A stretch of 24,760 bases of DNA, from assembly GCA_964507075.1 (NCBI GenBank), contig CAZDOL010000002.1, forward strand, positions 47,465 to 72,224, given 5' to 3'. Under the pieces are notes generated by a model. That model was given only the letters and a program-made list of their open reading frames with translations. It was not told where the DNA came from and made no database searches. The position numbers and the translations under genes are program-made. Positions within the stretch are counted from its first letter, which is position 1. Each line of letters starts with the position of its first letter. Source of the DNA: an uncultured Gammaproteobacteria bacterium. GTDB taxonomy: Bacteria; Patescibacteriota; Patescibacteriia; UBA2591; UBA6264. Shown here one piece after another: positions 196 to 24,760 of this stretch.

Positions 196-1572
196 ATGGT
201 AAAAAACAAAAAGATACAATTTTTTGTTATTTCATTAATGGTTATTTCTTTGGTTAGTTCTGGTTTTGGTTGTAAATGCGTATCTAACGAAATGAAAGAA
301 AAAATTAAGCCGATAAATTTAGTTTATTGGCGAGCTCAAGATGGCAAGGATGCTTTTTCAGAAATAATCCAGAGATTTCAAAAACTTTATCCACATATTT
401 CTATTACCTATAATTTAATTCGTGCCGAAGAATATGAACAAGCTCTTTTAGAGGCTTGGGCTGAAGACAGGGGTCCGGATATTTTTTCTATTCCTAAAAA
501 TTGGTTAGGGAAATATCAGTCTAAGATTTTGCCTTTAGGGTTTTCTCAAGAGATAATAATGGCCCGTCAGATTATGGCAGGGACAATCAAAAAAGAACCT
601 AAGATTGTACAAGAAAAGAAAAAAGCATTAGATTTAAGAGAACTAAAGGAGATTTTTGTAGAAACAGTTTCTAATGATGTCTTAATTGATAATAAGATTT
701 ATGGTTTACCGTTGTCTTTAGATGTTTTGGCCCTTTATTATAATCGTGATCTTTTGAATGAGGCGGGTATTGTCAGTCCGCCACAAACATGGCAAGAGTT
801 TATAGACCAAGTTAGGATATTAAATCTTTGGGATGCTTATGGAAATTTTATTCGTTCTGGAGTTTCTTTAGGGACAGCTAACAATATTGAAAATTATACA
901 GATATTTTATCTTTATTGATGTTTCAAAATGGCACTTCCATAGTTAACGAAAAAGGGCAGGCAATTTTTGATCAACCACTTTTGGATGATAAAACCTATT
1001 TTCCAGGACAAGAAGCCCTTCGTTTTTATCTTAGTTTCGCTAACCCTTCTCAAGAGATTTATAGCTGGAATGAAAAAATGCCTGATTCAACGAGCGCTTT
1101 TACCCAGGGTTTAACTGCTTTTTTGTTCGGCTATTCTGATTATTTACCATTAATAAAAGAGCAGGCTCCTAAATTGAATTTTGACATTATTAAAACGCCT
1201 CAAATTAGTAGTTCATTAAAAGAAGTAAATTATGCTAATTATTGGTTGGAAACAGTTTCCAAAAAAACAAAACATCCACACGAAGCTTGGGCTTTTGTTT
1301 TACACGCTACTGAAGCGCAGAATGCTAAGACTTTTGTGGAAAGAGCGAAAAGACCAACTGCTCATAGAAGTTTAATCCAATTTCAATTAGAGGATTTTGA
1401 TTTAATTCCTTTTGCTTCCAGCGTTTTAACTGCTAAAACCTGGTATCAAGGAAAAAAATATTCTTTAGCAAAAGAGTCTTTCAAAGAAATGATAGAAAGC
1501 GTTTTATTTGGACAAAAAACAATCCAAGAGGCGATTAAATATTGTGTTCAAAGAGTTAACTTAACAAATTAA
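196..1572 (+). CDS. ABC transporter extracellular solute-binding protein (family-1/MalE-like, probably sugar-binding), lipoprotein-type signal
   Basis: ATG start. The N-terminal hydrophobic segment ends in SSGFGC (lipobox-like). LVYWRAQDG...FQKLYPHISI...GPDIFSIP..WLGKY and the later IYGLPLSLDVLALYYNRDLL are typical SBP_bac_1-type sequence. No permease or ATPase gene lies downstream in the window. Confidence 0.8.
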   Translation: MVKNKKIQFFVISLMVISLVSSGFGCKCVSNEMKEKIKPINLVYWRAQDGKDAFSEIIQRFQKLYPHISITYNLIRAEEYEQALLEAWAEDRGPDIFSIPKNWLGKYQSKILPLGFSQEIIMARQIMAGTIKKEPKIVQEKKKALDLRELKEIFVETVSNDVLIDNKIYGLPLSLDVLALYYNRDLLNEAGIVSPPQTWQEFIDQVRILNLWDAYGNFIRSGVSLGTANNIENYTDILSLLMFQNGTSIVNEKGQAIFDQPLLDDKTYFPGQEALRFYLSFANPSQEIYSWNEKMPDSTSAFTQGLTAFLFGYSDYLPLIKEQAPKLNFDIIKTPQISSSLKEVNYANYWLETVSKKTKHPHEAWAFVLHATEAQNAKTFVERAKRPTAHRSLIQFQLEDFDLIPFASSVLTAKTWYQGKKYSLAKESFKEMIESVLFGQKTIQEAIKYCVQRVNLTN

Positions 1573-1612
1573 GAACATTAGAACATGGGAACATTAGAAC
1601 ATGGGAACATTA
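1573..1612 (+). repeat. Five tandem octamers: GAACATTA GAACATGG GAACATTA GAACATGG GAACATTA (a 16-bp unit x2.5)
   Basis: Read directly from the sequence. The array starts one base after the SBP stop codon and contains the ATG (1585) of the next ORF. A second ATG at 1601 is out of frame. Confidence 0.9.
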
Positions 1613-2265
1613 CATCAAAGAAAAAGAAAATTATTTTTGCTATATTTATATTTGCCCTTTTGTTTTTTGTATTGAATGCTGATGTAGTAAAAGCAGAAGG
1701 TTCATCTGGTCCTTGTAATGAGTTCTGCGGAAGAGAATGTCCTACACTTCAGATTGACGGAGAAGATTTTGACTATGGTTGTCGCAAAATTGGCCTTAAA
1801 AGCGACGGGGCAACTGCTTTATGTAGTTGTTGCCAATGCACTTTTATTGATTTGAGTAAAAACAAAAATGTAGTATGTGATTGCAATTGTCAAGATGAGA
1901 ACAAGATTAAAGATTGTTATGTTGGTGGTTTGTTTGGAGGTTGGCGCACCGCTGTTTGTTCATGTTGCGGAGATTGCACCCTAAATGATTTATTGTACAT
2001 TGGTGTTAGTATAGCTGAGTTAATTTTAAAGTATTTAGGAGTCATTGCCTTGTTTATTTTTATTCTGGGTGGTATAATTTGGATAACCTCTGGGGGAGCT
2101 CAAGAGAAAGTTAAAAAAGGAACAGCCATTATTAAAGGAGCAATTATTGGCATAATAATTGTTATAACTGCCTTTTTGGTAGTTAGGGTAATTATGAGAG
2201 ACATACTGAAGGTGGATTCAGAATACTTGCCTGAATCAAGTAGTCGAGAGTATAAAATTTCTTAG
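1585..2265 (+). CDS. Chimeric T4SS-type (TrbC/VirB2-like) pilin with a Cys-rich N-terminal extracellular module
   Basis: Signal/TM segment KKKKIIFAIFIFALLFFVLNADVVKAEG, then ~90 aa with 16 Cys by hand count. This part includes a duplicated motif (ALCSCCQCTFIDL / AVCSCCGDCTLNDL). The C-terminus has the pilin core LGVIALFIFILGGIIWITSGGAQEKVKKG plus a second TM helix, shared with the four ORFs downstream. Confidence 0.7.
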   Translation: MGTLEHGNITSKKKKIIFAIFIFALLFFVLNADVVKAEGSSGPCNEFCGRECPTLQIDGEDFDYGCRKIGLKSDGATALCSCCQCTFIDLSKNKNVVCDCNCQDENKIKDCYVGGLFGGWRTAVCSCCGDCTLNDLLYIGVSIAELILKYLGVIALFIFILGGIIWITSGGAQEKVKKGTAIIKGAIIGIIIVITAFLVVRVIMRDILKVDSEYLPESSSREYKIS

Positions 2266-2287: not shown

Positions 2288-2629
2288 ATGGATAAAAAAC
2301 ATTTTATTTTTATTATTATCTTAATTGGTGTTTTTGCTATAAGTTATGTTTCCTGTGCTGCTGAAACGGTTAAGCTCCCAAATCCTTTAGAGGGAAAAGA
2401 CGATATTCCCATTTTAGTAGGCAATATTATTAATTATGTTTTGGGAATTCTTGGAGTTTTGGCTTTGGTTATGTTTATTTATGGTGGTTTAACTTGGATG
2501 ACCTCTGAAGGATCGCCAGATAAAATAAAGAAAGGCAAAGACACCCTTATATGGGCAATATTAGGTTTGGCTTTAATTTTTTTCAGTTATTCTCTTTTGG
2601 ATTTTGTTCTCGCAGCATTACAGCAATAG
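2288..2629 (+). CDS. T4SS-type (TrbC/VirB2-like) pilin paralog
   Basis: Signal peptide, then core LGVLALVMFIYGGLTWMTSEGSPDKIKKGKDTLIWAILGLALIFFSY. This is two TM helices joined by a W-M-T-S-x-G-x3-K loop. Confidence 0.75.
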   Translation: MDKKHFIFIIILIGVFAISYVSCAAETVKLPNPLEGKDDIPILVGNIINYVLGILGVLALVMFIYGGLTWMTSEGSPDKIKKGKDTLIWAILGLALIFFSYSLLDFVLAALQQ

Positions 2630-3077: not shown

Positions 3078-3104
3078 ATTGCTGTTATAGTGTGGGGGTT
3101 GACA
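3078..3104. repeat. Palindromic repeat, left-arm copy: ATTGCTGTTATAGTGTGGGGG-TTGAC, truncated before the C5 arm
   Basis: The reverse complement, CCCCCACACTATAACAGCAAT, matches 2964-2983 apart from one indel. Confidence 0.85.
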
Positions 3105-3127
3105 TTTTTTTAAATTGTTTTTATATT
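3099..3127 (+). promoter_or_regulatory. Sigma70-like promoter candidate: TTGACA (3099-3104), 17-bp spacer, TATATT (3122-3127)
   Basis: Near-consensus hexamers at optimal spacing, ~50 bp upstream of the ATG at 3176. The -35 hexamer is contributed by the truncated palindromic repeat. Confidence 0.5.
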
Positions 3128-3175: not shown

Positions 3176-3565
3176 ATGAAAAATTGCAATAAAAAATTTT
3201 TGTCTTTCTTCATTATAATATCCTTGTCTTTGTTGCTTTTTTTTCCTTTACTGACCAGAACTAATGCTGTTAGTCTTGATGAGGAATTAGAAGGCTTTAG
3301 GAAAGGGGCTACATTAGGGGAAGCTAGTTTAGGAACAGTTATTGGAAAAGTGGTTAAGGGCGCTTTGGGTATTTTTGGTTTAGTTTGTTTGGTTATTTTT
3401 ATTATGGCTGGTTTCCAATGGATGAATTCCGGAGGACATAAAGAAAAAATTGCTGGTGCGCAAAAATCAATGGGCGCAGCTATTCTTGGCATGATTATTA
3501 TAATTGCCGCTTATGCAGCAGTGGATTTTATTACCAAAGCTTTATCTACGGTTACCGCTAAATAA
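3176..3565 (+). CDS. T4SS-type (TrbC/VirB2-like) pilin paralog
   Basis: Signal peptide ending TRTNA, then core FGLVCLVIFIMAGFQWMNSGGHKEKIAGAQKSMGAAILGMIIIIAAYAAVDFI. Confidence 0.75.
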   Translation: MKNCNKKFLSFFIIISLSLLLFFPLLTRTNAVSLDEELEGFRKGATLGEASLGTVIGKVVKGALGIFGLVCLVIFIMAGFQWMNSGGHKEKIAGAQKSMGAAILGMIIIIAAYAAVDFITKALSTVTAK

Positions 3566-3615: not shown

Positions 3616-3987
3616 ATGAAAAAATATTTACCTTTAATTGGCGTAGTATTAATGTTAGCTTTATTGGTTACTCCTGCTTTAGCACAAAATCTTGATAATG
3701 GTTTTATGATTGAATTTCAAGGTAATGCTGGGATTGGAGACAACACTATAGCTGAAGTTGTTGGTCAAGTAGTCAAAGCAGTTCTAAGTATTTTGGGTTT
3801 AGTAGCTTTAGTTATCTTTATAATTGCTGGTTTCCAATGGATGACATCTGGTGGTAATAAAGAAAAAATTCAGAGTGCGCAAAAATTAATGGGCGCAGCA
3901 GTAATTGGTTTGGTTATTATAATTATCGCCTATGCCGCTGCTTCTTTTATTATCAGTGCGTTAACTGATGTAACTGGGACGGCATAA
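3616..3987 (+). CDS. T4SS-type (TrbC/VirB2-like) pilin paralog, a close tandem duplicate of 3176-3565
   Basis: Signal peptide ending PALAQ, then core LGLVALVIFIIAGFQWMTSGGNKEKIQSAQKLMGAAVIGLVIIIIAYAAASFI. An AAAAGAGG motif occurs twice upstream and is SD-like. Confidence 0.75.
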   Translation: MKKYLPLIGVVLMLALLVTPALAQNLDNGFMIEFQGNAGIGDNTIAEVVGQVVKAVLSILGLVALVIFIIAGFQWMTSGGNKEKIQSAQKLMGAAVIGLVIIIIAYAAASFIISALTDVTGTA

Positions 3988-4023: not shown

Positions 4024-4458
4024 ATGGCTAGAAATTTTTCTTATCCAGAAAAAATATTTTCGGGTATTCTGTTAATTATTGTTCTAACTTTGATTTTTTG
4101 TAGCAGTCCAGTTTTAGCAGATAGTCCTCGAGACCAACTTAATGTTGTAGCTGGTCAAGTTGGCATCGCAACTACCAATTCTTTGGGTTATACATTTGGA
4201 CTTGTTTTTCAGAAAATATTGGGAGTAATGGGTTTGATTTTGTTGGTTTTATTTGTTATTGGTGGTATAACGTGGATGACTTCTGAGGGCAATGCAGAAA
4301 AACTAAAGAAAGCTAGGGGTTTATTGATTCATGCCATAATTGGTTTAATTATTATCTTAGTTTCTTATGCTTTGATTAATTTTGTGACCGAGAAACTGCA
4401 GGAAGTTGTTGATGCAAAAGAAATTCCTGCAACAGAAGTTCCTGCAACAGGTGATTAA
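4024..4458 (+). CDS. T4SS-type (TrbC/VirB2-like) pilin paralog with a short repeat tail
   Basis: Core MGLILLVLFVIGGITWMTSEGNAEKLKKARGLLIHAIIGLIIILVSYALINFV. The C-terminal tail EIPAT-EVPAT is encoded by two perfect TTCCTGCAACAG 12-mers (4424-4435 and 4439-4450). Confidence 0.75.
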   Translation: MARNFSYPEKIFSGILLIIVLTLIFCSSPVLADSPRDQLNVVAGQVGIATTNSLGYTFGLVFQKILGVMGLILLVLFVIGGITWMTSEGNAEKLKKARGLLIHAIIGLIIILVSYALINFVTEKLQEVVDAKEIPATEVPATGD

Positions 4459-4496
4459 ATAATAATTATTGATTATTCATATTTATTATATATATC

Positions 4497-4527
4497 AAAA
4501 ATATATCTGAATATCAGATATATTTTT
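4497..4527. terminator. Bidirectional intrinsic terminator between convergent genes
   Basis: Perfect 14-bp stem AAAAATATATCTGA / TCAGATATATTTTT with a 3-nt ATA loop. The A-run and T-run are built into the stem ends. It lies between the pilin stop (4458) and the GT2 stop (4554). Confidence 0.6.
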
Positions 4528-4553
4528 GTTTTGAATTGATTGATTATTAAATA

Positions 4554-5294
4554 TCAAAGAAGACGATATTTTAATCTAATTATTTCTTTTAGATACCCTA
4601 ATGCTGTTTTAATAATCTTAACTTTTGTTTTTCTTTCATTTTTATCTTCCCAATTAATTGGTATTTCTTTAATTTTGAGATTATGATGTCGAGCCAATAC
4701 TAAGAGTTCAGTGTCAAAGAAAAAACCATTGTTTTCAATTTTTGGGATAATTTTTTGAACAGCTGATTTGGAAAGCGCTTTAAATCCGCAATGGGTATCA
4801 GTTAATTTAATGTTAAAAAATATTTTAAGAATAAAATTATAGAATATAGAATACACAGAGCGCATTAGAGATCGTTTGCAGTGGCTTTGTTTCTGATATC
4901 GCGAGCCAATAGTTAAATCATATTTTTCTTTAATTATCCCTTTAATTAAGGGAAGTGTAAATTTTAGTTCAGTAGCCAAATCAGCATCCATAAAAATATT
5001 AACATCAACTAAATAATCCAGCCATGCTTTTTTAATAGCCAACCCCTTTTTATCAGGTTGTGATAAATGGAAGTATTCTAAATTAGAATATTTTTGTTTT
5101 TTTTGTTGGATTATTTTTATGGTTTTATCTGTTGAGCCGTTGTCAGCCACGATTATTTTCCATTTATATTCTTGAAGATTATTTTTACAAAAAATAAAAA
5201 GCTGATTAATTTTTTGCTCAATAATTTTTTCTTCATTATATGTTGGGATAACCACCAAAACGCTTTTCTTTTTTAGATTATGTTTAGTCTCCAT
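4554..5294 (-). CDS. Family-2 glycosyltransferase (polyprenol-phosphate sugar synthase / Dpm1-like)
   Basis: VVIPTYNEE...ADNGSTDKT...MDADLAT (DxD) plus a C-terminal amphipathic tail. This is a typical GT2 GT-A fold signature. Confidence 0.8.
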   Translation of the reverse strand: METKHNLKKKSVLVVIPTYNEEKIIEQKINQLFIFCKNNLQEYKWKIIVADNGSTDKTIKIIQQKKQKYSNLEYFHLSQPDKKGLAIKKAWLDYLVDVNIFMDADLATELKFTLPLIKGIIKEKYDLTIGSRYQKQSHCKRSLMRSVYSIFYNFILKIFFNIKLTDTHCGFKALSKSAVQKIIPKIENNGFFFDTELLVLARHHNLKIKEIPINWEDKNERKTKVKIIKTALGYLKEIIRLKYRLL

Positions 5295-8699: not shown

Positions 8700-8711
8700 T
8701 TTTAAAAAATC

Positions 8712-8743
8712 CCAATTACCCAAGTACCCGATTACCCAACTCC
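8712..8743. repeat. Tandem octamers CCAATTAC CCAAGTAC CCGATTAC CCAACTCC
   Basis: The 8-bp period was read directly from the sequence. The array sits in the divergent intergenic region between the GT-C-like gene and yebC. Confidence 0.85.
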
Positions 8744-14943: not shown

Positions 14944-15639
14944 ATGAGAAATAAATCTAAAGTTTTTCAAATATTTTGCCTTTCAGTATTGGGGTTATTT
15001 GTTTTAGCCTTAGGTTTTTTTCAGATCAGGGGAGCGATTTATGGTCCATTTAAAGGTTTTAGAAAATCTAATACAGAGAAAGAATCAGCACTAACACAAG
15101 AAGAGATTTTATTTATTTTATCAGAGCAAGCCAAACAAGAAGACACAGATAAGGACGGCCTTTCTGATTATGACGAAGCTTATGTTTATAAAACATCTCC
15201 ATATATCCAAGATTCAGATAGCGACGCCTTTTCTGACCAAGAAGAAATAGAAGCGGGAAGTGATCCTTTGAATTCTAATTCAACGCCTTATCATCAGGCA
15301 GAGGATAATGAAGACAATCAATTAATAGATAAATCTTGGCCCGAGCCCCTTGAGGATGAACAATTTTCTTCAGAAGATATTAGGGATTTTTTAATTCATG
15401 CAGGAATAGACAAAGAAATTGTGGACAATATTGATGACAATGATTTAAAAAAGTTATATAATGAAACTAAAGAAGAAACAGGTATTGACCCGCAGGATTT
15501 AGGATTGTCATCTTCTCCTGAGGTTGATATTCTTTTATTAAGGCAAGCTCTAATAGATGAGGGGGTTGATGCTTTAATATTGGGAGAAATAGATGACGAG
15601 ACGTTAAAAGCAATGTTTTTGGAAAATTTAGGAAATTAA
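14944..15639 (+). CDS. N-terminally anchored, highly acidic protein with thrombospondin-type-3-like Ca-binding repeats and a duplicated C-terminal helical motif
   Basis: TM segment VFQIFCLSVLGLFVLALGFFQI. DTDKDGLSDYDE and DSDSDAFSDQEE match the DxDxDGxxDxxE pattern. Internal duplication: IRDFLIHAGIDKEIVDNIDDNDLKKLY / LRQALIDEGVDALILGEIDDETLKAMF. Confidence 0.6.
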   Translation: MRNKSKVFQIFCLSVLGLFVLALGFFQIRGAIYGPFKGFRKSNTEKESALTQEEILFILSEQAKQEDTDKDGLSDYDEAYVYKTSPYIQDSDSDAFSDQEEIEAGSDPLNSNSTPYHQAEDNEDNQLIDKSWPEPLEDEQFSSEDIRDFLIHAGIDKEIVDNIDDNDLKKLYNETKEETGIDPQDLGLSSSPEVDILLLRQALIDEGVDALILGEIDDETLKAMFLENLGN

Positions 15640-15662: not shown

Positions 15663-18600
15663 ATGAGATTTGGGAAATCAGGTAATATTTTTATCAAAGG
15701 AGCGATTTTATTAACAATGTTTATGTTAGTAATTTCCTCTTTTTTATTTTTACCACAAAAAACTCAAGCTCAATTTATTGTTGCTGATCCCATCAAGGGT
15801 GTTTGGGATGCGATGAAATGGGCATGGGATAAGGGTGGTGCAGTTGCTTATCGAAATGCTTTAAATTTCTTTTTACAACAAGCCGCCAAACAATCAGGTG
15901 AATGGTTGGCTACTGGAGATGCAGGCAAGAAACCAGCATTTTTAACTGATCCTGATTTTTTTAGTAAAGCAGGTGATCAAATGTTGGGAGAGTTTGTTGA
16001 TTCTGTGGCAGATAATTTTTTAGGACAAAGTCTTTGTGACACTTTAGATCCCACTGTTAAATTTAACATATTGGCTAATTTAGACCCAGATTATCAAAAA
16101 ATGAAATGGGCAGAAGAACCAAAATGTTCTTTCAGTCAAATTAAAAAGAATCTTGAAGAAGCAGACTGGGAAAATATGTTTGAGTTTTCTAGTGAGGTAA
16201 AAGAGGGGAAAGTTGCTAAGCAAAAATCAACTATTAGCTCTCTTATTCAAGGTGATTCAATCCTAACAGAAGAGAGGAAGTATACATTGGACGGCAAACT
16301 AGATATTTGTCCTGGGAGCGGTCTTGACATCTTACAATGTCCTGCTGGAGCTGTTAATTGGGCGTTAGGAAACGTTTTTTATTTTTATCAGGAAGACTAT
16401 CAAGGAGTTGGGTCATATTTGCATGAATATACTAATGAGTTTGAGGATATTTTAGAGGGACTGAAAAAAGATGCTCCAACCCTTGGACTTGTTCGTGAAT
16501 CAGGTGAATCTGAAGATGAGAAAGATGCTGAGGCTGTGGCGATAATGAAAGGAGAGGCCTCGGCAAGGCTCCAGGCATTAGAAAAACAATTAGATCCAGA
16601 AACAGGCGCAGAAATTTGGATTCCGGGAGAGGGTGAAGATATATTTAAATTAGCAAGTTTAAATAAGTGGGCCCCAGAATGTTTAGCAAAGGATAACAAG
16701 GTTTTATTAGATGACCCGCAATGTCGTGGTTTATGTGATGTGAAAATTTGGCTTCGCAATGATTCTAATTCTGTAAAGAAATGTACTAGCGCATTAGGTA
16801 AACCAACTGGAAGTGTGTGTACATCAAATTCTGACTGTGAATCAGGCAGTACTTGCGAAGAATGGTATGGAATGTGTCAAGGGGGAAGTCATAATGGAGA
16901 GTGGTGTAAGAATACTTCTCAGTGTTTATTGCCATTACCAGGCGTTTGTGTAGATGCTGGACCGATTTGTTATAATCGCATTAAGAGAGTGAATAAATAT
17001 ACCAAACAATTAATAGAGTGGGCCACTACCCTACAGGACATGATAACTCAAGTTCAAAATAACTGGGAAGCACAGAAAGGTATACCTGATTTAGATCCTT
17101 TGGAAGACGCACAGAATATGTTTAATCCAGAGAGTAGCGCCATTGGTATACAAATGAGCTTAGAGAGTAAATTATTTGAAAAACAAGCAGCTGCTATTGA
17201 AAAAAGTAAAATTTTTAGGAGTATTCAGGGTTCAATGAACGCAGTAACTTCAAAAGTTTCAGGCATTATTAAACTACCATCTACTTTTGTGAGTGAAAAA
17301 GCGCGGGAATCTGTAAAATCTGGGAGCGCTGGACCTTTAACTACCACAGGCGTGGCTTTAGCTGATGCTATTGGAGTTTTTGCCAACACTTTTATATCTC
17401 AGTATATGAAGATTCTTTTCACCAAAGGACTCAATCCAGGGGCAGATAGCAGCAGGGTCAATGTTCCTGATGATCCCGAGGATCCGCCAGATCCGGACAC
17501 AACTTCTATTTTAAGCGAAATAAAAGTAATCCCTATTAATCAAGCCAGTAATGAAATGAGTATTTATGATGAATTTGCAGTTTGTCCTACTGGTACCGAC
17601 CAAAAATATACTTCTCAATTTAATTGTTTATTAGATAATAAATTAGCTCGAGCTGTAGAAGAAAGAATGACCATTCAAGAAGCTATAGAGAATAGTCTTC
17701 TTAATCCTGAAGAACGTTTGGGTATAGCTGGTGATATGCGTAGTTTATTATCAAAGAGTCATATTCAAAAACTACGACTAATTGGTATTCTGCCCTTGGG
17801 CATGCAAATCGCCAGCAAAATAGTTATGGAAGGGCAATATACTAACGGAATGACTTTGGCTGAGGTGGTAGACGGATTTGATCAAAGGGGCGCAAATGGT
17901 ATTTGTGGTGATCTTGACTCAGGAGAAAGTGAATTTTGTAATCTGGTAGACCCTGATTGGGTTTTGAAAGCCCCCAGTTATTTATGTGAAATAACTGGTT
18001 ATTCAGCGATTCCCCTAAGAGATAGTTCTTTTCGCCAAGAATCCTGTTTAGATTTAAAAACATGTATTAACGAAACTGATGGCAATCAGTGTGATACATG
18101 GTCTTATTGCACCCGCGCAAAGAATGTTTGGCGTTTTGGTGGAGATGAATGTGATGCTCAGTATAATACTTGTGCTTCTTATGCCCAAAAAGATAGTGGA
18201 GAAATTTTCTCTTATCTTTCTAATACTTTAGATTTTAATAATTGTAGCGCCAGTAATGTTGGTTGCAAATGGTATTGTTCAAAATGGGACCAAATATATT
18301 CGGGCATAGGTGGTAATTGGCCTTGTTCGTCTCCTGGTTGGCGCAAATATACTTGTTATCTCGGAGGCTTGTGTGATGACCCTTCTTGTCTTTGCGCTTG
18401 CGACGGCGATAATGGTTGTCCTGATGGATTAGGGAGTTGTGATGTTGTAGAAGGAGGAATGTCTTGTTCCTTGGATAGTCCCGAATTAAGGAATGTAGCC
18501 TTTTTTAGTAATCATATTGGGGGATGCAAAGAAGTTGACGAGGGTTGTTCTAAATATATTAGAATTAAACCAGGAACAGGAGTTAATTTTTTGCCTAATG

Positions 18601-21600
18601 GAAGTTTTGAGTTGCCTTCTCAAGATGACGGCACTCCTTTTGGTTGGTATGTTAATAATTCAGCGATTATTCAACAAATTGCGCTTTCCTCGGGTGCGCA
18701 ACATAGCAGTAATGTGGTACAGATTCAGACCGGTAATTGCGAATTAAGTCAGACGGTTCATAATGTCCCTTTACAAGGAGATTTTACTTTCTCGGGATAT
18801 TATAAGAAAAATAGCATTTTATCTGGTAATTATAATTTAAAATTACAAATTTGTTATGACGATAATTGCGATGATTTGGACGAGATTGAGAAAATTATTG
18901 AGCTTGATAATAATAATTGGAAACCTGTTTCTGTGTCCTTATCTTCTAATATAGAGAAATCTATTGATCATGTTAAGATTTTCGCTTTTAATTCTTCTGA
19001 TTTTAGTGGTGATATTTATATTGACGCATTACAACTTAGAAACGAAAGTGGGAATTCGGTTTATAGAGAATATGGCTCTAATGGGATTACTTATTTTAAA
19101 AGTGCTCCCGGACAGATGAATTGTTATGATGGAGATGAGAGTAATAATAATACTGATTGTGATAATTTTATTCAAAAATGTGATTCACAAAATGTTGGTT
19201 GCGAATCTTATATTTCTATGAATGATAATATGTCAGATATTCCAGCCATAGTTGATAATTTAGATTTATGTCTTTCAGGTTGTGTTGGCTATGAAACTTT
19301 TGAAGAAATTCCGACCAATTTTGTTAGTAGTAATCGTTGGGTAGATTTAATTCCTCAAACAGCAAAAAAATGTTCTGCTCCAGGTTGTGAGGAATTTACG
19401 AATTTAGATGCCTTGTCTCAAGGAGGTGAAGCGAGAGAATACTATACTTATCTCCGCCAATGCGTTAAGACTAATGCTCAAGGATTGGCAATCGTGGATT
19501 CTCTGGGAAACGAAATTTCGCCAGCCACTGCCGATACTTGCCGATATTATTATACTTGGGTTGGAGAAGAAACAAACGGATATCAATTAAAGAAATATTA
19601 TTTAGAAGCTAATCTATCTTTAGGGGGGCCAGTTCAAGTTAGCGCAACCCCGAATTCTGATTGGGGTGATTGCGAAAACGAGGATGACGCAGACGAAAAT
19701 CCTCATTGCAGGCAATTTTACGACGCTATGGGCAATATTTATTATCGTCTTTATAAAAATACTGTTACTTGCTCGCAAGACTGTAGTCCTTATCGTAGAG
19801 AAGTGGACAACACAACTCATATGGCTATAAAAACAGAAGGAGAAATTTGCGGGTTCCAAGACGTTGGTTGCAGGGAGTATAAAGGGTCTGCTTATGGAAA
19901 TATGAAAAATTTATTCTTGGACAGATTCCTCTCCAGCACTGATCCATGGGAAAATGTTGAAATCAGCGGCGAATCAATCAATCACTTGGGCCAATCTATA
20001 AAAGCCGACAATAATTTGGCTCAAAGACCAGTAGATGATTTCATTAGTTCTAGGGGAAAGGTTTATTCTCTTTCATTGTGGGTTAAAGGAAGTGGTAATT
20101 ATATTGCATCTTTCGGCAATGATTTATATTTTATTAACGAAGGTTCTCATGATGTTTCAGTTGTTTCTAATGATTGGCAAGAGATAAGATTTGGTTCTGT
20201 TTATTTTAACAGAGAGCCAGAAAACGATGAAAAATTAATCATCCAAGGACCGAATCAATTTTATTTAGATAATATTACCCTTAATGAGGTTCAGGATAAT
20301 ATTTATTTAACTCAAAATTCTTGGAATACACCGGCGGTTTGTGATATTGATTCCGAAGGAAATATATTTTCTGGTTATATGCTTGGTTGTCAAGCTTATT
20401 GGGATAGGAGCAATAACGCGCATTATCTTAAATCATTTAGCCGTCTTTGCCCCACAAAAGCAGTTGGGTGCGAAGCTATAATTGACACAAAAAATTCAAT
20501 GTCTGCTTTTAGCGAAGAATTTAATGGAGGGCTTCCTCAGGGCGACGAAATTGTTATTCCCGCCGACAGCTTGATTTACAGGGTTTATGACACAGACAAG
20601 AGTTGTGCCTCTGAAAACAAAGGGTGTCAAAGATTTGGCTTACCAGAATTTGATTCTAGTCAAGAAATAATTGATTTCACAGATGTATATTTATTAAATA
20701 ATCCAGATTTATATAAACTTCAATCCATTCTATGCGACATAGAAGGAGAAGGGTGTCAAGAATATGATGGACGAGTTTATTTTAAAGAACCAGGTGACAA
20801 TATTTGTGAGTATCGTGAAAATGTTTTTATTAATGGAGAGAATAAAAATGGTTGGTTTAAAGGTGAAACTGATCAACCTTGTTATATAGAAAATGGTTTT
20901 GCCTATCAACCATATGGCACTGTTTATGGTATTCGTACTAATACAGATCTTTTATATGAGGGAATTGCTGGGGTTTGTCCTGAAAATCAGAATGGATGTA
21001 GTCGGTTTATTAATCCAACTGAACAAAATTTAGTTTTGAATAGTGGGTTTGAGTTAGATGAGAATGGAGATGATGTTCCTGATGATTGGGACCCATATGA
21101 AGATCCAGAAATATCATTTACCCTAGAAACGAATGATTGTTTGAGCGGAAATTGTTGGCGAATGAATCATATTGGCGCTGCAACTTCAGCTGGTTCGCAA
21201 TATATAGAAATACAACCAGGATATACTTATGAGCTTTCTGCATGGATGAAAGCAAGTGATACTTCTACTGGTACCAGCAGAATTTACCTTGCTTATGTTG
21301 ATGAATTTAATCCTGGGACTTGGTTAGATATTGCTCACTCTGAACAATTAGGTTCTACGGACGGAAAATGGATAAAACACACTGTTACATTAAAAGCTCC
21401 ATATAATGCCATGTACGCTAGAATTTTAGCTCCTTATGTTGACGGTTTCATGGATGTGAGGATAGATAATGTTTCCTTAATAGAACAATTTTCTCCGCAA
21501 GGCAGTTATTATTATTTAAACAATGAAAATATAGATAAGACTTCTTGTAATGCAATGGCAGGTTTAAAAGAAGGTTGTATCTTATTTAATGATACTTCAA

Positions 21601-24065
21601 TTTCAGGAAATTTATTTTATGATTCAACCTCTACTTATGTTTTAAGTCAATCTCAGGGTGATATTTCAGTTCCAGCGTCCAGTGTTAGTTTAAATTCTGG
21701 GGGCGAAGGAGACAGTAATGTAGTTCTTAAAGTGAGGCGAGATAGAACTTGTGGTGAATGGTTGCAATGTTCGGGTTATCGTTCGGTCTGGGATAGTTCT
21801 ATTGATGAATATCGTTCGGTCTGTGATTCTTGGGTGCGTTGCGATCAGTTGGTTGGCTCTGGCAAACAAGCTCAATGCGGACATGTTGTTTATGATCCCA
21901 ACCCTAATCCTTTAACAGAACGAGAATATAAAAACAGAAATGTTTCTTGGTCAGGTATGGACTATTTGGGTTATTCTATACCAGATATGTATCCCATAGA
22001 AAGATTGTTCCCGAGCGAAGATACGCAAAATTCAGGATTATATACCTTAACTTATTTTGAAGATATAGATGATGATGGCATAGAAGACAATATAGGAGTG
22101 GATGGACTTGGCTTAAACATTGAGAAAACCACGCGTATTTACCCAGAAAAGAATTCTCCTTTCATGGCCAGTGCTAGTTCCTATTATAACAAGGTTAATT
22201 TATGTGATAGTGGAACAGGTGATTATCCTTATGATAATATTGATATTGACGGTAATATTGTCTCTCTCTATCCTGATTGTCAGGGTTCTTATCAGAAGGT
22301 TGAATATGGTGATCAATATAGTGGACTAACTAAATATTATAATTTTGATACAGGGGGCGTTAATTTAAGGAAAGCTTGTAAATATAGTGGGAAAAATTGT
22401 GAAAATGGTTTTCCTGACTGTGAAGCGGGAGATGAATGTGTTAAACCAAACAAGATAACTCAAGTTATTGGTTTGAGGGGTTTTTGTTTAGAGCCAGATG
22501 AGTCAAGGCCTGAAGATGCTAATACTTGTATTACTTGGTGGCCAGGGGCCAGCGCTGGCGATGTAGATGTTTATAATTTACATTATTCAGCAGGATATGT
22601 GGCGACTGGTAGCAGGAAATGGTATTGTTTAAATCAAGAGGACTATGTTTTTTCGGATGTTTGCACAGAAGATGGTGATCCGGGATGTAAATATCATTGT
22701 TGGGAGCACGACAGTTGTTCTTCTATTAAGATTTATGACGTAAATGATGATGGTCGCTTGATTCATAAAGATGAGATAGATTATGTCCAAACAGAATTAG
22801 GGGCTTCTGACGGGACAAGTTGTTCAATGGATCATATAATATATCTTAGAGAGGATCATGTTGGAAATTATGAAGAGGGAAATTGGTATGGTTGTACTGT
22901 GTCTGATGGTAGTTATGCTGGTAGTTGTGGTTATGATGCAGCCGCGTCTGACCCTCTCACTTGTAGATGTACCCAAAATGGTGATGGAACACAAAATGAT
23001 GGCTGCTCCTGCACAAAAATACAAGTTACTTTTGACTCCAATGGTTTTTTAGAAAAAGTAAAGCTAAGAGCGCATGGGAACAGTGCTGCCAATGATCGAC
23101 AATCATGGGATGGTGATTTGGAGGTTCATCTTAAGAGTGGCTGTCAATTCCTTGTTAATGCGATCCCAAGTGACAATTTTGGATTATCCATTACTTATAC
23201 TGATCGCTTTTGGGAATTCAGTGATTATTATTCTATAATAGATCCACCAAATACGCCTGGGACTGGCGGCCAAGATTGTACTCCTTATGGGGTGGCCAAT
23301 ACTTCAGACGCAACTAGATTGACCATAACAGGAGGTTTGGGAGAGGATAATTGTGATGGGGGCACAGAAGATGGAGGTAAAGCTAATATTGTCTATAATT
23401 TAAATGGCTTACAACAACTGTTTGTCAAGGTTGATGAAACACAAGAATTTGACGAAAATGCAATGAGCTATGGTTCAGTAATTGCTGGCAATTGGGCTCC
23501 CTGGAATATAACAGAGATTGCAGCAAGTTCGGCAGATGCGCCAACGATAACTTCTATTAATGGAGTTGAAAACGCTATTAGTATTGGGGAAGAGGATTTT
23601 GGAGTAGGTCCAGAAACATCTCCTTATGTTGCAAATCTTAAATTTTATGCTTCAGCAGATACAAATCATATGCCTATTAGGGAGATTAGCATTGATTGGA
23701 ATAATGATACGCCAATTAATTTTTATAATGTAATTAGCAAAAATCATCGTCCAGAATGTGATGGTACAGAATTTGGCGCAACACCTGAAGCTTGTGTAGA
23801 TAAATATTTTTCATTCAACCATACTTATACTTGCGAAGGAGAAGGAAGTGATGGATGGAATGCACATGGATGTGTTAATATGTGTTGTTTTAAACCTAAA
23901 GCTTATATCAAAGATAATTGGGGCTGGTGTGCTGGTAATCCAGGGGTATATGCTGGATGGGATTCTGACAACAATGCATATAATTGTAAAGATTGGGCTG
24001 ACATACCCGTAAGCGAAGCAGGAATTCCTTATAATGGAGTAATTAAAGTAAACACAAATAACTAG
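15663..24065 (+). CDS. Giant (2800 aa) secreted or N-terminally anchored Cys-rich surface protein with three jelly-roll/CBM-like modules and a PKD-like C-terminal region
   Basis: An uninterrupted 8.4-kb ORF beginning 23 nt after the previous gene. Signal peptide ...FLFLPQKTQAQF. About 112 Cys by hand count, nearly all after aa ~120. Recurrent C-x(4-7)-G-C-x-x-[YF] motif. N(F/L)(L/V)xNG(S/G)FE-type modules at ~18585-19050 and ~21027-21488, plus a related one at ~19908-20295. No LPXTG or C-terminal anchor. Confidence 0.85.
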   Translation: MRFGKSGNIFIKGAILLTMFMLVISSFLFLPQKTQAQFIVADPIKGVWDAMKWAWDKGGAVAYRNALNFFLQQAAKQSGEWLATGDAGKKPAFLTDPDFFSKAGDQMLGEFVDSVADNFLGQSLCDTLDPTVKFNILANLDPDYQKMKWAEEPKCSFSQIKKNLEEADWENMFEFSSEVKEGKVAKQKSTISSLIQGDSILTEERKYTLDGKLDICPGSGLDILQCPAGAVNWALGNVFYFYQEDYQGVGSYLHEYTNEFEDILEGLKKDAPTLGLVRESGESEDEKDAEAVAIMKGEASARLQALEKQLDPETGAEIWIPGEGEDIFKLASLNKWAPECLAKDNKVLLDDPQCRGLCDVKIWLRNDSNSVKKCTSALGKPTGSVCTSNSDCESGSTCEEWYGMCQGGSHNGEWCKNTSQCLLPLPGVCVDAGPICYNRIKRVNKYTKQLIEWATTLQDMITQVQNNWEAQKGIPDLDPLEDAQNMFNPESSAIGIQMSLESKLFEKQAAAIEKSKIFRSIQGSMNAVTSKVSGIIKLPSTFVSEKARESVKSGSAGPLTTTGVALADAIGVFANTFISQYMKILFTKGLNPGADSSRVNVPDDPEDPPDPDTTSILSEIKVIPINQASNEMSIYDEFAVCPTGTDQKYTSQFNCLLDNKLARAVEERMTIQEAIENSLLNPEERLGIAGDMRSLLSKSHIQKLRLIGILPLGMQIASKIVMEGQYTNGMTLAEVVDGFDQRGANGICGDLDSGESEFCNLVDPDWVLKAPSYLCEITGYSAIPLRDSSFRQESCLDLKTCINETDGNQCDTWSYCTRAKNVWRFGGDECDAQYNTCASYAQKDSGEIFSYLSNTLDFNNCSASNVGCKWYCSKWDQIYSGIGGNWPCSSPGWRKYTCYLGGLCDDPSCLCACDGDNGCPDGLGSCDVVEGGMSCSLDSPELRNVAFFSNHIGGCKEVDEGCSKYIRIKPGTGVNFLPNGSFELPSQDDGTPFGWYVNNSAIIQQIALSSGAQHSSNVVQIQTGNCELSQTVHNVPLQGDFTFSGYYKKNSILSGNYNLKLQICYDDNCDDLDEIEKIIELDNNNWKPVSVSLSSNIEKSIDHVKIFAFNSSDFSGDIYIDALQLRNESGNSVYREYGSNGITYFKSAPGQMNCYDGDESNNNTDCDNFIQKCDSQNVGCESYISMNDNMSDIPAIVDNLDLCLSGCVGYETFEEIPTNFVSSNRWVDLIPQTAKKCSAPGCEEFTNLDALSQGGEAREYYTYLRQCVKTNAQGLAIVDSLGNEISPATADTCRYYYTWVGEETNGYQLKKYYLEANLSLGGPVQVSATPNSDWGDCENEDDADENPHCRQFYDAMGNIYYRLYKNTVTCSQDCSPYRREVDNTTHMAIKTEGEICGFQDVGCREYKGSAYGNMKNLFLDRFLSSTDPWENVEISGESINHLGQSIKADNNLAQRPVDDFISSRGKVYSLSLWVKGSGNYIASFGNDLYFINEGSHDVSVVSNDWQEIRFGSVYFNREPENDEKLIIQGPNQFYLDNITLNEVQDNIYLTQNSWNTPAVCDIDSEGNIFSGYMLGCQAYWDRSNNAHYLKSFSRLCPTKAVGCEAIIDTKNSMSAFSEEFNGGLPQGDEIVIPADSLIYRVYDTDKSCASENKGCQRFGLPEFDSSQEIIDFTDVYLLNNPDLYKLQSILCDIEGEGCQEYDGRVYFKEPGDNICEYRENVFINGENKNGWFKGETDQPCYIENGFAYQPYGTVYGIRTNTDLLYEGIAGVCPENQNGCSRFINPTEQNLVLNSGFELDENGDDVPDDWDPYEDPEISFTLETNDCLSGNCWRMNHIGAATSAGSQYIEIQPGYTYELSAWMKASDTSTGTSRIYLAYVDEFNPGTWLDIAHSEQLGSTDGKWIKHTVTLKAPYNAMYARILAPYVDGFMDVRIDNVSLIEQFSPQGSYYYLNNENIDKTSCNAMAGLKEGCILFNDTSISGNLFYDSTSTYVLSQSQGDISVPASSVSLNSGGEGDSNVVLKVRRDRTCGEWLQCSGYRSVWDSSIDEYRSVCDSWVRCDQLVGSGKQAQCGHVVYDPNPNPLTEREYKNRNVSWSGMDYLGYSIPDMYPIERLFPSEDTQNSGLYTLTYFEDIDDDGIEDNIGVDGLGLNIEKTTRIYPEKNSPFMASASSYYNKVNLCDSGTGDYPYDNIDIDGNIVSLYPDCQGSYQKVEYGDQYSGLTKYYNFDTGGVNLRKACKYSGKNCENGFPDCEAGDECVKPNKITQVIGLRGFCLEPDESRPEDANTCITWWPGASAGDVDVYNLHYSAGYVATGSRKWYCLNQEDYVFSDVCTEDGDPGCKYHCWEHDSCSSIKIYDVNDDGRLIHKDEIDYVQTELGASDGTSCSMDHIIYLREDHVGNYEEGNWYGCTVSDGSYAGSCGYDAAASDPLTCRCTQNGDGTQNDGCSCTKIQVTFDSNGFLEKVKLRAHGNSAANDRQSWDGDLEVHLKSGCQFLVNAIPSDNFGLSITYTDRFWEFSDYYSIIDPPNTPGTGGQDCTPYGVANTSDATRLTITGGLGEDNCDGGTEDGGKANIVYNLNGLQQLFVKVDETQEFDENAMSYGSVIAGNWAPWNITEIAASSADAPTITSINGVENAISIGEEDFGVGPETSPYVANLKFYASADTNHMPIREISIDWNNDTPINFYNVISKNHRPECDGTEFGATPEACVDKYFSFNHTYTCEGEGSDGWNAHGCVNMCCFKPKAYIKDNWGWCAGNPGVYAGWDSDNNAYNCKDWADIPVSEAGIPYNGVIKVNTNN

Positions 24066-24132: not shown

Positions 24133-24760
24133 GTGAAGGATTTATTTAAGAAAATTAAACTAAGATACCATATAAAGTTGCTACGCTCCCAAGGGCCAAG
24201 CAGGAAATTTATTTTTCTTCCTCTTTTGGTTTTGGTGTTAATAGGAGTATTTTTAATTGCTGAACCTGCTTTAGCTGACGTTGGATCTTTTGTGGCTTCT
24301 GTTTTTGGTTGGTTAATAATGCAGATAGTTAGTATTTTGGGTAAAATTTTGACTTGGATTATAGGATTATTAATAGAAATAGCGCAATATAATAGTTTTA
24401 TCACTGCTCCAGCTGTTTCTAAGGGATGGATAATTGTTAGAGACGTTTGTAATATGTTTTTTATTGCCGCTCTTTTGCTTATTGCTTTTGGTACAGTTTT
24501 AAAAATAGAAAAATATTCTTATAAAAGAACTTTGGGCGGACTTTTAGTGGCTGCAGTTTTGATTAATTTTTCTAAATTCATCTGCGGTTTTTTTATTGAT
24601 ATCGCTCAGATATTGATGCTTACTTTTGTTAATGCATTTAAAGATGCTGGATCTGGCAATTTTTTGCAAATGTTAGGCATGGATAAATGGCTTAATTTTT
24701 CTGGAGCGCAATCAGCAGCAGGTGGTAGCGCTCTTACGGGAGCTCTTTTCGCTCTAATTT
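24133..24760 (+). CDS. Partial (3'-truncated by the window) polytopic membrane protein with a signal peptide; possibly VirB6/TrbL-like
   Basis: Hand translation of the frame opening after the TAA at 24118-24120 gives the following: (GTG 24133 or TTG 24178)...RKFIFLPLLVLVLIGVFLIAEPALADVGSFVASVFGWLIMQIVSILGKILTWIIGLLIEIAQYNSFITAPAVSKGWIIVRDVCNMFFIAALLLIAFGTVLK...LLVAAVLINFSKFICGFFIDIAQILMLTF... It remains open to the window end and has several TM helices. It is absent from the ORF track, probably because no stop codon is present. The family assignment is tentative. Confidence 0.6.
   Translation, partial: MKDLFKKIKLRYHIKLLRSQGPSRKFIFLPLLVLVLIGVFLIAEPALADVGSFVASVFGWLIMQIVSILGKILTWIIGLLIEIAQYNSFITAPAVSKGWIIVRDVCNMFFIAALLLIAFGTVLKIEKYSYKRTLGGLLVAAVLINFSKFICGFFIDIAQILMLTFVNAFKDAGSGNFLQMLGMDKWLNFSGAQSAAGGSALTGALFALI

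Follow-up and report, generated by a model that had tools for sequence, protein, structure and literature searches.

What does a segment with 16 cysteines do on a protein that ends in a VirB2-type pilin core, and what might the pilin array that this protein leads be building? The gene lies in a 24,760-nt window (the whole stretch of DNA analyzed here) from an uncultured ultra-small bacterium (Patescibacteria), in which the open reading frame at 1585..2265 on the + strand encodes 226 amino acids. A Sec signal peptide opens the product, hereafter called the Cys-pilin; a ~95-aa module containing 16 Cys comes next, followed by a VirB2-type pilin hairpin (PF18895). The identical protein (P0001) occurs on at least 13 contigs. 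The gene and its parts are as follows.

1585..2265, + strand: complete Cys-module pilin gene, 226 aa plus stop (ORF list).
1585..1695, + strand: signal peptide, residues 1-37, with an MGTLEHGNITS extension, then KKKK as n-region, then a hydrophobic stretch that leads to VKA (by eye from the sequence).
1696..1980, + strand: predicted Cys-rich ectodomain, residues 38-132, 16 Cys (Cys count; module-only AF2 model).
1714..1830, + strand: accessory N-terminal six-Cys block (C44, C48, C52, C66, C80, C82), found in the extended subfamily only.
1831..1977, + strand: universal core, residues 83-131 (alignments; Cys presence patterns).
1981..2205, + strand: VirB2-type hairpin with helix 133-168, basic loop TSGGAQEKVKKG, and helix 173-207 (PF18895, AF2, BLASTP).
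2206..2262, + strand: short, predicted extracellular C-terminal tail with a conserved YLPxS motif (alignment; Pfam scan of relatives).

We found no alternative in-frame start in the ORF 1585..2265 that retains the signal peptide, and ~75 homologues show protein-level conservation of the module, so it is translated rather than bypassed. These homologues, collected by a representative protein search and DNA-pattern scans, all come from Patescibacteria metagenomes; the second-best match of the representative search, a 1116-aa repeat protein (P0027) that lacks both CCGDC and the pilin hairpin, was discarded as a low-complexity Cys/Thr repeat artefact. In the AF2 model, residues 11-34 are helical and the linker that comes next (33-39) has low confidence, and we infer from the leader sequence that Sec signal peptidase I cuts after VKA37. 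The mature protein would then have ~189 aa, with a predicted 95-aa folded ectodomain placed before helix α1, and so exceeds the typical, hairpin-only size; we therefore regard the Cys-pilin as a variant rather than a typical VirB2/TrbC-type pilin.

The assignment of the C-terminal part to VirB2-type pilins, made in the preliminary description, is borne out by two comparisons. PF18895 (T4SS_pilin) covers residues 148-203 with a score of 28.0 bits, which is marginal relative to the gathering cut-off of 26.6, and BLASTP aligns the core with the neighboring pilins at 35-38% identity (E = 1e-12 and 4e-12). The protein also has the leader, with predicted cleavage, the two hydrophobic helices, and the short Lys-rich loop of such pilins. 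Its neighbors complete a tandem array.

2288..2629, + strand: pilin paralogue at array position 2, 113 aa, 1 Cys (PF18895 48 bits, PF04956 32.9 bits; positional orthology).
3176..3565, + strand: pilin paralogue at array position 3, 129 aa (PF18895; positional orthology).
3616..3987, + strand: pilin paralogue at array position 4, 123 aa, a duplicate of the position-3 class (PF18895; positional orthology).
4024..4458, + strand: pilin paralogue at the last array position, 144 aa (PF18895; positional orthology).
4496-4528: terminator-like hairpin after the last array pilin.

In all 51 related loci the Cys-pilin leads the array, as a single gene against 3-4 plain pilins in fixed order that are Cys-free or Cys-poor. 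The array members are positional orthologues that fall into four classes, a pattern seen even when only the hairpins are compared. Two other pilus- or wall-related assignments were rejected: a type IV pilin or T2SS pseudopilin, given the Sec-type leader (VKA, then E), the C-terminal two-helix hairpin, and the lack of a class III signal; and a sortase substrate, since YLP(E/K)S after TM2 is followed only by the hydrophilic tail SSSREYKIS. In orthologues, PG_binding_1 or Cys-rich ectodomains take the place of this tail or lengthen it, with extensions (as in P0040) that reach ~780 residues and with Cys counts that are even in 27 of the 30 non-zero cases. The presence of such C-terminal domains argues that both termini of the hairpin lie outside the cytoplasm.

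Three further genes of the window define the surroundings of the array.

196..1572, + strand: orphan family-1 solute-binding lipoprotein, SBP (SBP_bac_1, 80 bits).
15663..24065, + strand: giant secreted protein of 2800 aa and 112 Cys; the T4SS core genes follow directly.
24133..24760, + strand: start of a 955-aa polytopic protein, a VirB6 candidate, cut by the window end and followed by PrgI and a VirB4-like ATPase.

Wherever a related locus has enough flank (51 related loci), the SBP gene directly precedes the Cys-pilin, and its orthologues, adjacent to the Cys-pilin in L001-L056, are 52-92% identical, so that part of this synteny may reflect inheritance within a related clade rather than selection. 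The nearest PDB relatives of the SBP are sugar or oligosaccharide binding proteins, and the flanks examined contain no ABC permease or ATPase gene. The T4SS core genes are located on the same contig and the same strand, ~20 CDS or ~22 kb downstream of the Cys-pilin and separated from the array by ~11 kb of housekeeping genes; they include PrgI (30.3 bits) and a VirB4-like ATPase (P-loop_TraG, 94.7 bits). The VirB6 candidate has only a weak precomputed TrbL_3 match and gave no match on re-scan. The giant protein contains 4.0% Cys, and its count of 112 is even. A likeness between it and the module had been proposed; this stands for composition and for the shared T4SS-adjacent context, but not for homology, as an HMM of the module has no match in the 2800-aa protein even at E ≤ 10.

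We propose, with a probability of roughly one half, that, within one Patescibacteria clade, the Cys-pilin is a specialized subunit of a VirB2-like (T4SS-type) pilin set. Once the protein is exported and its leader cut off at VKA37, the hairpin would lie in the membrane and might become part of a filament at a later stage; its Lys-rich loop would point inward and the two termini outward. Several features favor a low-copy display subunit over bulk polymer: the ectodomain would be bulky and rigid, each array has only one copy, the gene comes first, and orthologues add PG-binding or Cys-rich domains at the C-terminus. Such a subunit could serve as the cap, primer, or adhesin of a heteromeric VirB2-like assembly, or anchor that assembly in the wall; the placement as tip, cap, or adhesin is one that we infer from analogy and gene order. 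To our knowledge, a VirB2-like pilus has not been demonstrated experimentally in any Patescibacterium.

The alternative that survives best, which we consider possible yet distinctly less probable, is that the Cys-pilin is no filament subunit and instead serves as a membrane-resident display anchor, whose hairpin keeps ectodomains, disulfide-rich or PG-binding, within the zone of the wall. It might act jointly with the putatively co-transcribed SBP, for instance in a complex that serves nutrient capture as a dock or scaffold. Every locus has the SBP gene next to the Cys-pilin gene, often with a gap of 1-50 nt, and the outer flanks vary; ABC permease and ATPase genes are absent nearby; PG_binding_1 in the orthologues is compatible with anchoring to the cell's own wall; and monoderm T4SSs are normally without pili (PMC12857230). 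On the other hand, the hairpin is of bona fide PF18895/PF04956 type and common to 3-4 short paralogues, the same contig carries T4SS core genes, and the SBP is tied to the pilins by gene order alone. A more far-reaching version of the subunit reading, which we regard as unlikely, is that the SBP, the Cys-pilin, and the three plain pilin classes form an undescribed heteromeric surface organelle built by the nearby monoderm-type T4SS. Its tip, which would make contact with the host, would be the new-fold eight-disulfide domain (relatives swap this domain for PG-binding modules or extend it with them), and the SBP would link the structure to the capture of nutrients from the host.

It is more doubtful still that the Cys-pilin is the major repeating subunit, such that the disulfide-rich domain covers the filament along its whole length. 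The N-termini reportedly face outward in the solved VirB2/TraA pili (Costa et al. 2016, cited in PMC12857230), and, by a rough and uncomputed geometric estimate, a domain of ~11 kDa on each subunit is conceivable. However, the one Cys-pilin gene per array, set against 3-4 plain pilins in fixed order, argues for a minor component, and C-terminal extensions of the size found in P0040 are hard to place on every subunit. We thus return to the reading of the Cys-pilin as a specialized, low-copy member of the set and consider what its module could be.

The Cys residues occupy positions 44, 48, 52, 66, 80, 82, 83, 85, 98, 100, 102, 111, 125, 127, 128, and 131, all of them between the signal peptide and the first pilin helix. 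An exact count thus gives the 16 Cys that had been counted by hand in a ~90-aa segment, here delimited as a ~95-aa module, and the motifs quoted with that count (ATALCSCCQCTFIDL, RTAVCSCCGDCTLNDL, VCDCNC, and CNEFCGREC) are each found in the sequence. Taken over 104 residues, the density is 15.4%, compared with 0.97% Cys in the other ORFs of the window when the giant protein is left out (binomial tail 7e-15; 7e-10 with the giant protein counted).

The preliminary description had also reported a duplicated CSCC motif. The two arms of the putative repeat, both weak by pairwise alignment against shuffles and by hhalign, are as follows.

1780..1857, + strand: internal repeat arm 1, residues 66-91, CRKIGLKSDGATALCSCCQCTFIDL.
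1915..1992, + strand: internal repeat arm 2, residues 111-136, CYVGGLFGGWRTAVCSCCGDCTLNDL.

Local alignment of C66-L91 with C111-L136 scores 55, compared with 28.5 ± 5.6 for shuffled sequences, of which 2 of 2000 reach 55, and a profile-profile comparison recovers the same register (P = 0.0035), but with an HHalign probability of only 9%. Moreover, the first CSCC copy is not conserved: one subclade has CDVC instead, and C83 alone is universal. A modest, above-chance internal duplication is therefore weakly supported, and a duplicated CSCC motif as such is not.

The Cys positions themselves are conserved in homologues, so that the check on this point proposed in the preliminary description leaves its reading standing. 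Eight of them (C83, C100, C102, C111, C125, C127, C128, and C131) are near-invariant across the ~75 homologues, within a core (residues 83-131) whose consensus is Y/CxCxCQ..N.V.DC.VGGL...(P/A)(V/I)CxCCGDC; the most conserved stretch of the module is the part joined to helix α1. The remaining eight are gained or lost in pairs or as a block. Among 51 aligned ectodomains, the six N-terminal Cys columns appear and vanish jointly (Fisher p = 1e-6 to 1e-11, with kinship ignored), and C85 and C98, an optional pair within the universal core, are both present in 12, both missing in 38, and discordant in 1, the sequences being related and the events not independent. In the same set, two proteins have lost C111 together with C127, and one lacks both C83 and C100. 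The Cys count of the N-terminal ectodomain is even (6, 8, 10, 12, 14, or 16) in 72 of 73 proteins, which are again related and not independent; the exception has 11.

To place the module among known folds, we used AF2 and Foldseek. The module-only model is confident (pLDDT 83.8, pTM 0.76) and shows a compact α/β fold, with helices at 45-51 and 60-65, strands at 66-71, 78-87, 96-102, and 106-113, and a helix at 120-128; in the full-length model the module is continuous with helix α1. The confident fold and the linker-free run into α1 point to a retained folded ectodomain rather than a removed leader, as far as the models can tell. When Foldseek was run with the full-length model on PDB and BFVD, and with the module alone on PDB, nothing came back at E ≤ 0.001, the best module match in PDB having E = 1.8 with TM ≤ 0.29; outside the hairpin, profile searches of Pfam, NCBIfam, and PDB sequences found no match. 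The disulfide-rich bacteriocins laterosporulin 3 and 10 appear in the weak Foldseek top lists at insignificant E values (3.3-7.9). The structure prediction and Foldseek run suggested in the preliminary description thus yielded a confident fold without a known structural match, and the knottin-like or metallothionein-like character considered there is not supported. A knottin or inhibitor cystine knot is rejected given the length (95 aa versus ~30-50) and the Foldseek values, and a metallothionein given the seven aromatic residues and confidently predicted four-strand sheet, the exported location, and the paired gain and loss of Cys.

Of the two chemistries envisaged for the module, a disulfide-locked domain or a metal-binding one, the first is favored and the second is less well supported. 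The even Cys counts in 72/73 proteins and the pairwise losses point to disulfides rather than metal sites, and joint loss tentatively suggests the pairs C85-C98, C111-C127, and C83-C100. The 16 Cys would then form eight disulfides that lock the compact α/β domain, and those made by C125, C127, C128, and C131 would clamp it to helix α1 at the outer end. We judge it improbable that the module is instead an extracellularly displayed metal-binding domain (Zn, Cu, or Fe-S, metallothionein-like). Its CxC, CC, and CxCC spacings do resemble metal-thiolate motifs, the hosts are likely anaerobes, and we found no Dsb or VKOR genes within the ~45 kb of contig examined. Against this, Cys are gained and lost in pairs with even totals, of which 6, 10, and 14 cannot be divided by 4; conserved His residues are absent; aromatic residues are numerous in the module, and its β-sheet core is predicted with confidence; and neither Pfam, NCBIfam, nor PDB yields any match to metal-binding families or structures.

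In VirB2 and TraA, a long leader is cleaved off. By that precedent, and with the laterosporulins among the weak Foldseek matches, the Cys-rich segment might be a pro-region or a released peptide (bacteriocin-like or signaling) cleaved from a pilin scaffold, but this is very improbable, as those matches are insignificant, the last four Cys and CCGDCTLND enter α1 without a linker or conserved cleavage motif, and module conservation is highest at the helix-fused part. A RiPP or lanthipeptide precursor is ruled out by the architecture.

VirB2-like arrays are known in Patescibacteria and essential in one cultured member (PMC12102498, PMC10633639, PMC12857230), Southlakia epibionticum (Wang et al. 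2023, PMC10633639); the reported pilins are short, and their variation has been suggested to relate to host range (Quinonero-Coronel et al. 2025, PMC12102498; PMC10633639). The present locus shares with these arrays (PF18895/PF04956) the phylum, the tandem divergent pilins with Sec leaders, and a nearby monoderm-type T4SS (PrgI, VirB4, VirB6-like); it differs in its four fixed orthologue classes, in the orphan SBP in front, and in a first pilin with a 6- to 16-Cys ectodomain and often an additional C-terminal one. The array reports (PMC12102498, PMC10633639) make no mention of such a Cys module, and literature searches gave zero matches.

With diderm VirB2, TraA, and TrbC, the Cys-pilin shares the leader, two hydrophobic helices, short basic loop, and outward termini, and PF04956 matches its position-2 paralogue; the classical proteins, however, are ~70-120 aa when mature and lack an extra folded domain, whereas here a predicted disulfide-rich domain of 95 aa precedes α1. 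The logic of a large extra domain on one member of a fixed, non-interchangeable paralogue set recalls bulky minor (pseudo)pilins (GspK, PilX/PilY1-associated sets), but only as an analogy, since fold and machinery are unrelated and the Cys-pilin has no class III signal and a hairpin instead of a single N-terminal helix. High Cys density and CC and CxC spacings are shared with knottins, defensin-like bacteriocins, and metallothioneins, from which the module differs in being larger, membrane-tethered, and built on an α/β core with aromatics, without a sequence or fold match.

Many Patescibacteria are anaerobes without quinones, and the predicted chemistry of the module raises the question of how 16 Cys are oxidized extracellularly in organisms without respiratory chains. 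Because VirB2-like arrays are essential in the sole genetically tractable Patescibacterium, the Cys-pilin family bears on what these arrays build. At least in one clade, the array consists of four fixed classes and not of interchangeable variants, and its first member displays a predicted rigid, disulfide-rich domain without a detectable structural relative, sometimes with PG-binding domains as well. The 95-residue soluble module offers a target for structure determination and binder design, and the Cys-pilin can be tested as the putative subunit by which the array assembly makes contact or is anchored.

The Cys-pilin gene stands at the head of a same-strand array of VirB2-type pilins, directly behind a solute-binding lipoprotein (SBP) gene:

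196-1572, SBP_bac_1 solute-binding lipoprotein
1585-2265, + strand, Cys-pilin, array position 1, 226 aa
2288-2629, + strand, pilin, array position 2, PF18895 (T4SS_pilin)
3176-3565, + strand, pilin, array position 3, PF18895
3616-3987, + strand, pilin, array position 4, PF18895
4024-4458, + strand, pilin, last array position, PF18895

The Cys-pilin opens with MGTLEHGNITS, KKKK, a hydrophobic core and VKA, after which EGSS begins a stretch of ~95 residues leading into a long hydrophobic hairpin with a Lys-rich inter-helix loop and a short C-terminal tail bearing a conserved YLPxS motif. Pfam matches T4SS_pilin at residues 148-203 (28.0 bits; cut-off 26.6), the hairpin shares 35-38% identity with the pilins that come next in the array (E 1e-12 and 4e-12), and the Cys region has no Pfam match. 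A script count places 16 Cys (residues 44, 48, 52, 66, 80, 82, 83, 85, 98, 100, 102, 111, 125, 127, 128, and 131) in the N-terminal ectodomain (residues 38-132, the module) and none outside it, confirming the observation of a preliminary description, made from sequence alone, of a pilin core fused to a 16-Cys module; its ORF coordinates, hand count and quoted motifs are all correct, and its interpretation is partly supported. Segment 38-141 (104 residues) is 15.4% Cys, against ~1% in the other ORFs of the window (0.97% without a giant 2,800-aa protein), giving a binomial tail of 7e-15, or 7e-10 with the giant protein counted. A perfect 16-bp tandem repeat, GAACATTAGAACATGG in 2.5 copies (the octamer AGAACATT five times), occupies 1573-1612, covering the spacer from the SBP stop to the pilin start and the first codons (MGTLEHGNIT); other lineages carry different octamer repeats (AGGTACTT) at this site, with the ORF start further downstream (MLNNKKK), and the element may be regulatory.

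An initial database search recovered 25 homologues with 40-73% full-length identity, all from Patescibacteria (Parcubacteria-type) metagenomes. The preliminary description had made Cys conservation a test, and 13 of the 16 Cys columns hold Cys in at least 22 of the 26 aligned sequences, with C102, C128, G129, C131, and D135 invariant. Searched against 1.84 billion representative proteins, a module-only profile matched only 24 clusters; all except P0027, rejected as a repeat-protein artefact, are pilin-hairpin proteins with the core Y/CxCxCQ..N.V.DC.VGxL...(P/A)(V/I)CxCCGDCTLN(D/N)FL directly ahead of the first helix. DNA-pattern scans located 16 loci in 185,579 species genomes and 35 in JGI metagenomes. 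The family is real, conserved, rare and clade-restricted. The suggestion that translation might start downstream, so that the module is not made, fails because the ORF holds no in-frame downstream start that keeps the signal peptide and because the module is obviously under protein-level constraint. The SBP-pilin cassette of Patescibacteria-titled records also occurs in ten MAG records under the title "uncultured Gammaproteobacteria bacterium" (TPA_asm; genome contigs L004, L006-L010, L014, L015, L017, and L018), a title that is probably erroneous or placeholder taxonomy.

We tallied Cys from the end of the hydrophobic leader to CCGDC.

Cys in the N-terminal ectodomain of 73 unique full-length family members
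6 Cys: 4 proteins
8 Cys: 23 proteins
10 Cys: 9 proteins
11 Cys: 1 protein
12 Cys: 7 proteins
14 Cys: 18 proteins
16 Cys: 11 proteins

The total is even in 72 of 73 members, which are related by descent, so that parity and co-occurrence counts are non-independent trials. C-terminal ectodomains of relatives contain 6, 8, 10, 20, 32 or 46 Cys and are even in 27 of 30 non-zero cases, one of the three odd ones being cut by a contig end. Across alignment columns, C85 and C98 occur together in 12 sequences and are both missing from 38, with one exception, in long and short subfamilies alike; C111 and C127 are jointly replaced in two proteins (DG...CAFCGDC), and C83 and C100 are jointly missing from one. 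C44, C48, C52, C66, C80, and C82 behave as a single accessory six-Cys block, and one subclade replaces C82 by Val and gains a Cys at position 101, keeping the total even. Six different even totals with pairwise gain and loss form the pattern of disulfide-bonded domains, suggesting that the 16 Cys make eight disulfides, with C85-C98, C111-C127, and C83-C100 as tentative pairs. The preliminary description had offered a disulfide-locked or a metal-binding module. A metal-binding module is less likely, since metal sites give no reason for even totals or paired loss and three of the totals (6, 10, and 14) cannot be divided by four; in addition, no His is conserved in the module, which contains seven aromatic residues.

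AlphaFold2 gave a mean pLDDT of 70.8 for the full-length protein (~80 over the module; 26-sequence alignment) and 83.8, with pTM 0.76, for the module by itself (37-sequence alignment). The predicted module comprises helices 45-51 and 60-65, a four-stranded sheet (66-71, 78-87, 96-102, and 106-113) and a helix at 120-128, and it passes without a break into the pilin helix at residue 133, placing C125, C127, C128, and C131 at the junction; if disulfide-bonded to the sheet, these would staple the module onto the outer end of alpha1. The module could instead be a cleaved pro-peptide, removed as a leader, which we consider less likely. Foldseek found nothing significant in the PDB (best E 1.7 for the full model and 1.8 for the module; TM <= 0.29) or in BFVD (best E 0.18), a PDB sequence-profile search returned no match at E <= 10, and NCBIfam gave none. 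The knottin-like and metallothionein-like comparisons are therefore unsupported, and as far as PDB, BFVD, NCBIfam, and Pfam reach, the module appears to be without a known relative.

The duplicated CSCC motif fares less clearly. Local alignment of residues 38-95 with 96-141 pairs C66-L91 with C111-L136 (CRKIGL...TALCSCC-QCTFIDL and CYVGGL...TAVCSCCGDCTLNDL), scoring 55 against 28.5 +/- 5.6 for shuffles and reached by 2 of 2,000, and within the 8 + 8 Cys layout, C66 and C80 have the same C-x13-C spacing as C111 and C125. Half-module family profiles align in the same register (P = 0.0035), with an HHalign probability of just 9%. Two points weigh against a clean duplication of ancient origin: C83 is the sole universal Cys of the first CSCC (CDVC in one subclade), and the first half is mostly accessory block, while the second copy is part of the universal core. 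Partial duplication within the module is thus plausible but weakly supported.

Wherever a related locus has enough flank, four or five pilins form an array on one strand, with the Cys-pilin as its first gene. Best hits between the arrays of L001-L016, with the first gene represented by its hairpin only, always pair position 1 with position 1 and position 2 with position 2; position 3 pairs with position 3 (duplicated into positions 3 and 4 in five-gene arrays, the window included) and the last position mostly with the last. Because best hits keep position, the array is a fixed set of four paralogue classes and not a recent amplification, which argues for a fixed heteromeric set over antigenic variation. 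The four further pilins of the window have 0-2 Cys each, and a disulfide-rich coat on every pilus subunit is less likely. Pilins 2 and 3 are separated by an 85-aa GIY-YIG nuclease ORF (2682-2939; absent from L001 and L003) that resembles a small homing or mobile element interrupting the array, and behind this ORF comes the best-scoring promoter-like site of the region (3099-3127, 11/12 matches).

All loci with flank have an SBP_bac_1 lipoprotein of 455-466 aa, 52-92% identical to that at 196-1572, as the next gene upstream of the Cys-pilin, often with a gap of just 1-50 nt; its nearest solved relatives bind sugars or oligosaccharides. Genes beyond it vary (TyrRS, NTP transferase, DnaJ, lectin-like protein, PBP1), and no ABC permease or ATPase gene lies near it in the examined loci. 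An orphan family-1 (sugar-type) SBP, the Cys-pilin and three to four plain pilins thus make up a conserved cassette (L001-L056), which, together with the structural novelty of the module, is a solid result. Two identical terminator-like hairpins (TCTCGCCATGGGCGAGG then TTCTTAT; 32-48 and 103-119, 71 bp apart) sit upstream of a promoter-like site of the SBP (162-189). Just past the array, on the opposite strand in many loci, are a GT2 glycosyltransferase (4554-5294, -) and a 560-aa polytopic protein (7041-8723, -) with a weak STT3-like match, which may form an envelope or pilin glycosylation module; a PMT_2 protein is close by in L009, and the sulfatase-family gene between them (5302-7044) occurs in the window lineage only.

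Position-1 orthologues display N-terminal modules of 6 to 16 Cys, and in many the C-terminal tail is extended by one to several PG_binding_1 domains, a small six-Cys module ending TTxCCK, or up to ~780 residues (P0024-P0026, P0033, P0035, P0037, P0040, P0042, P0044, and P0048; loci L006, L007, L009, L011, L012, and L014). PG_binding_1 repeats number one to many, up to 935 aa in total, and extension Cys counts are again even. Even Cys counts on either side and the PG-binding domains place both hairpin termini outside the cytoplasm, in agreement with VirB2 topology and the Lys-rich inter-helix loop.

Downstream, T4SS-type genes directly follow the giant protein, continuing on the same contig beyond the 3' end of the window (L057, 18471-25807):

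15663-24065, + strand, giant protein, 2,800 aa
24133 to the window end (24760, cut), 955-aa polytopic protein, VirB6-like
next, 426-aa protein
next, PrgI (VirB3-like), 30.3 bits
next, TraC-like protein
next, 627-aa VirB4-type ATPase (P-loop_TraG 94.7 bits, AAA_10, CagE_TrbE_VirB 20 bits)

A precomputed weak TrbL_3 match in the 955-aa protein was not recovered on re-scan. This succession marks the start of a monoderm-type T4SS core, with VirB4 ~20 genes and 22 kb downstream of the Cys-pilin on the same strand and ~11 kb of housekeeping genes between pilin and core. The giant secreted protein has a signal-anchor-like N-terminus, 112 Cys (4.0%, an even number) spread over its length and a single CBM_4_9 domain (residues 1789-1913). 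Its Cys-rich likeness to the module, pointed out earlier, holds for composition and T4SS context but not for homology, as the module HMM does not match it even at E <= 10. Given its place directly upstream of the core, also kept in L002, it is probably a surface component belonging to this T4SS system. Ahead of it is a 231-aa protein (14944-15639) that contains a bacterial TSP3 repeat; the pair is conserved beside T4SS genes in L002 and may be a surface or adhesin component.

In 383 Patescibacteria assemblies, VirB2-like arrays of 2-11 genes were reported and read as host-range variation (PMC12102498), and an essential six-pilin array is known from Southlakia epibionticum (PMC10633639; reviewed in PMC12857230). 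These accounts include no Cys-rich or folded ectodomain, fixed orthologue order or SBP partner, and a full-text literature search for a pilin combined with these features returned no match. In sequence, topology and context the Cys-pilin agrees with the VirB2/TrbC family; however, that family is hairpin-only, and the Cys-pilin, which adds a domain without detectable relative, is best filed as a variant within it.

The main rival to a pilus role holds that the hairpins stay in the membrane and anchor their ectodomains alongside the SBP lipoprotein, the constant upstream neighbor; the pilus reading draws on the nearby T4SS core and the ordered array. We propose for the latter that the Cys-pilin is exported by Sec and cleaved after VKA37, that its hairpin would sit N-out, C-out, and that eight disulfides would rigidify the module and fix it to alpha1. 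Position-1 pilins look like scaffolds for extracellular domains, with an eight-Cys core as the constant base. The Cys-pilin may be a specialised, low-copy member (cap, primer, adhesin or wall anchor) of a heteromeric VirB2-like assembly that would be built by the neighboring monoderm-type T4SS; a place at the tip is suggested by the analogy to GspK and other bulky minor pilins and by the ratio of one such gene to three or four plain pilins.
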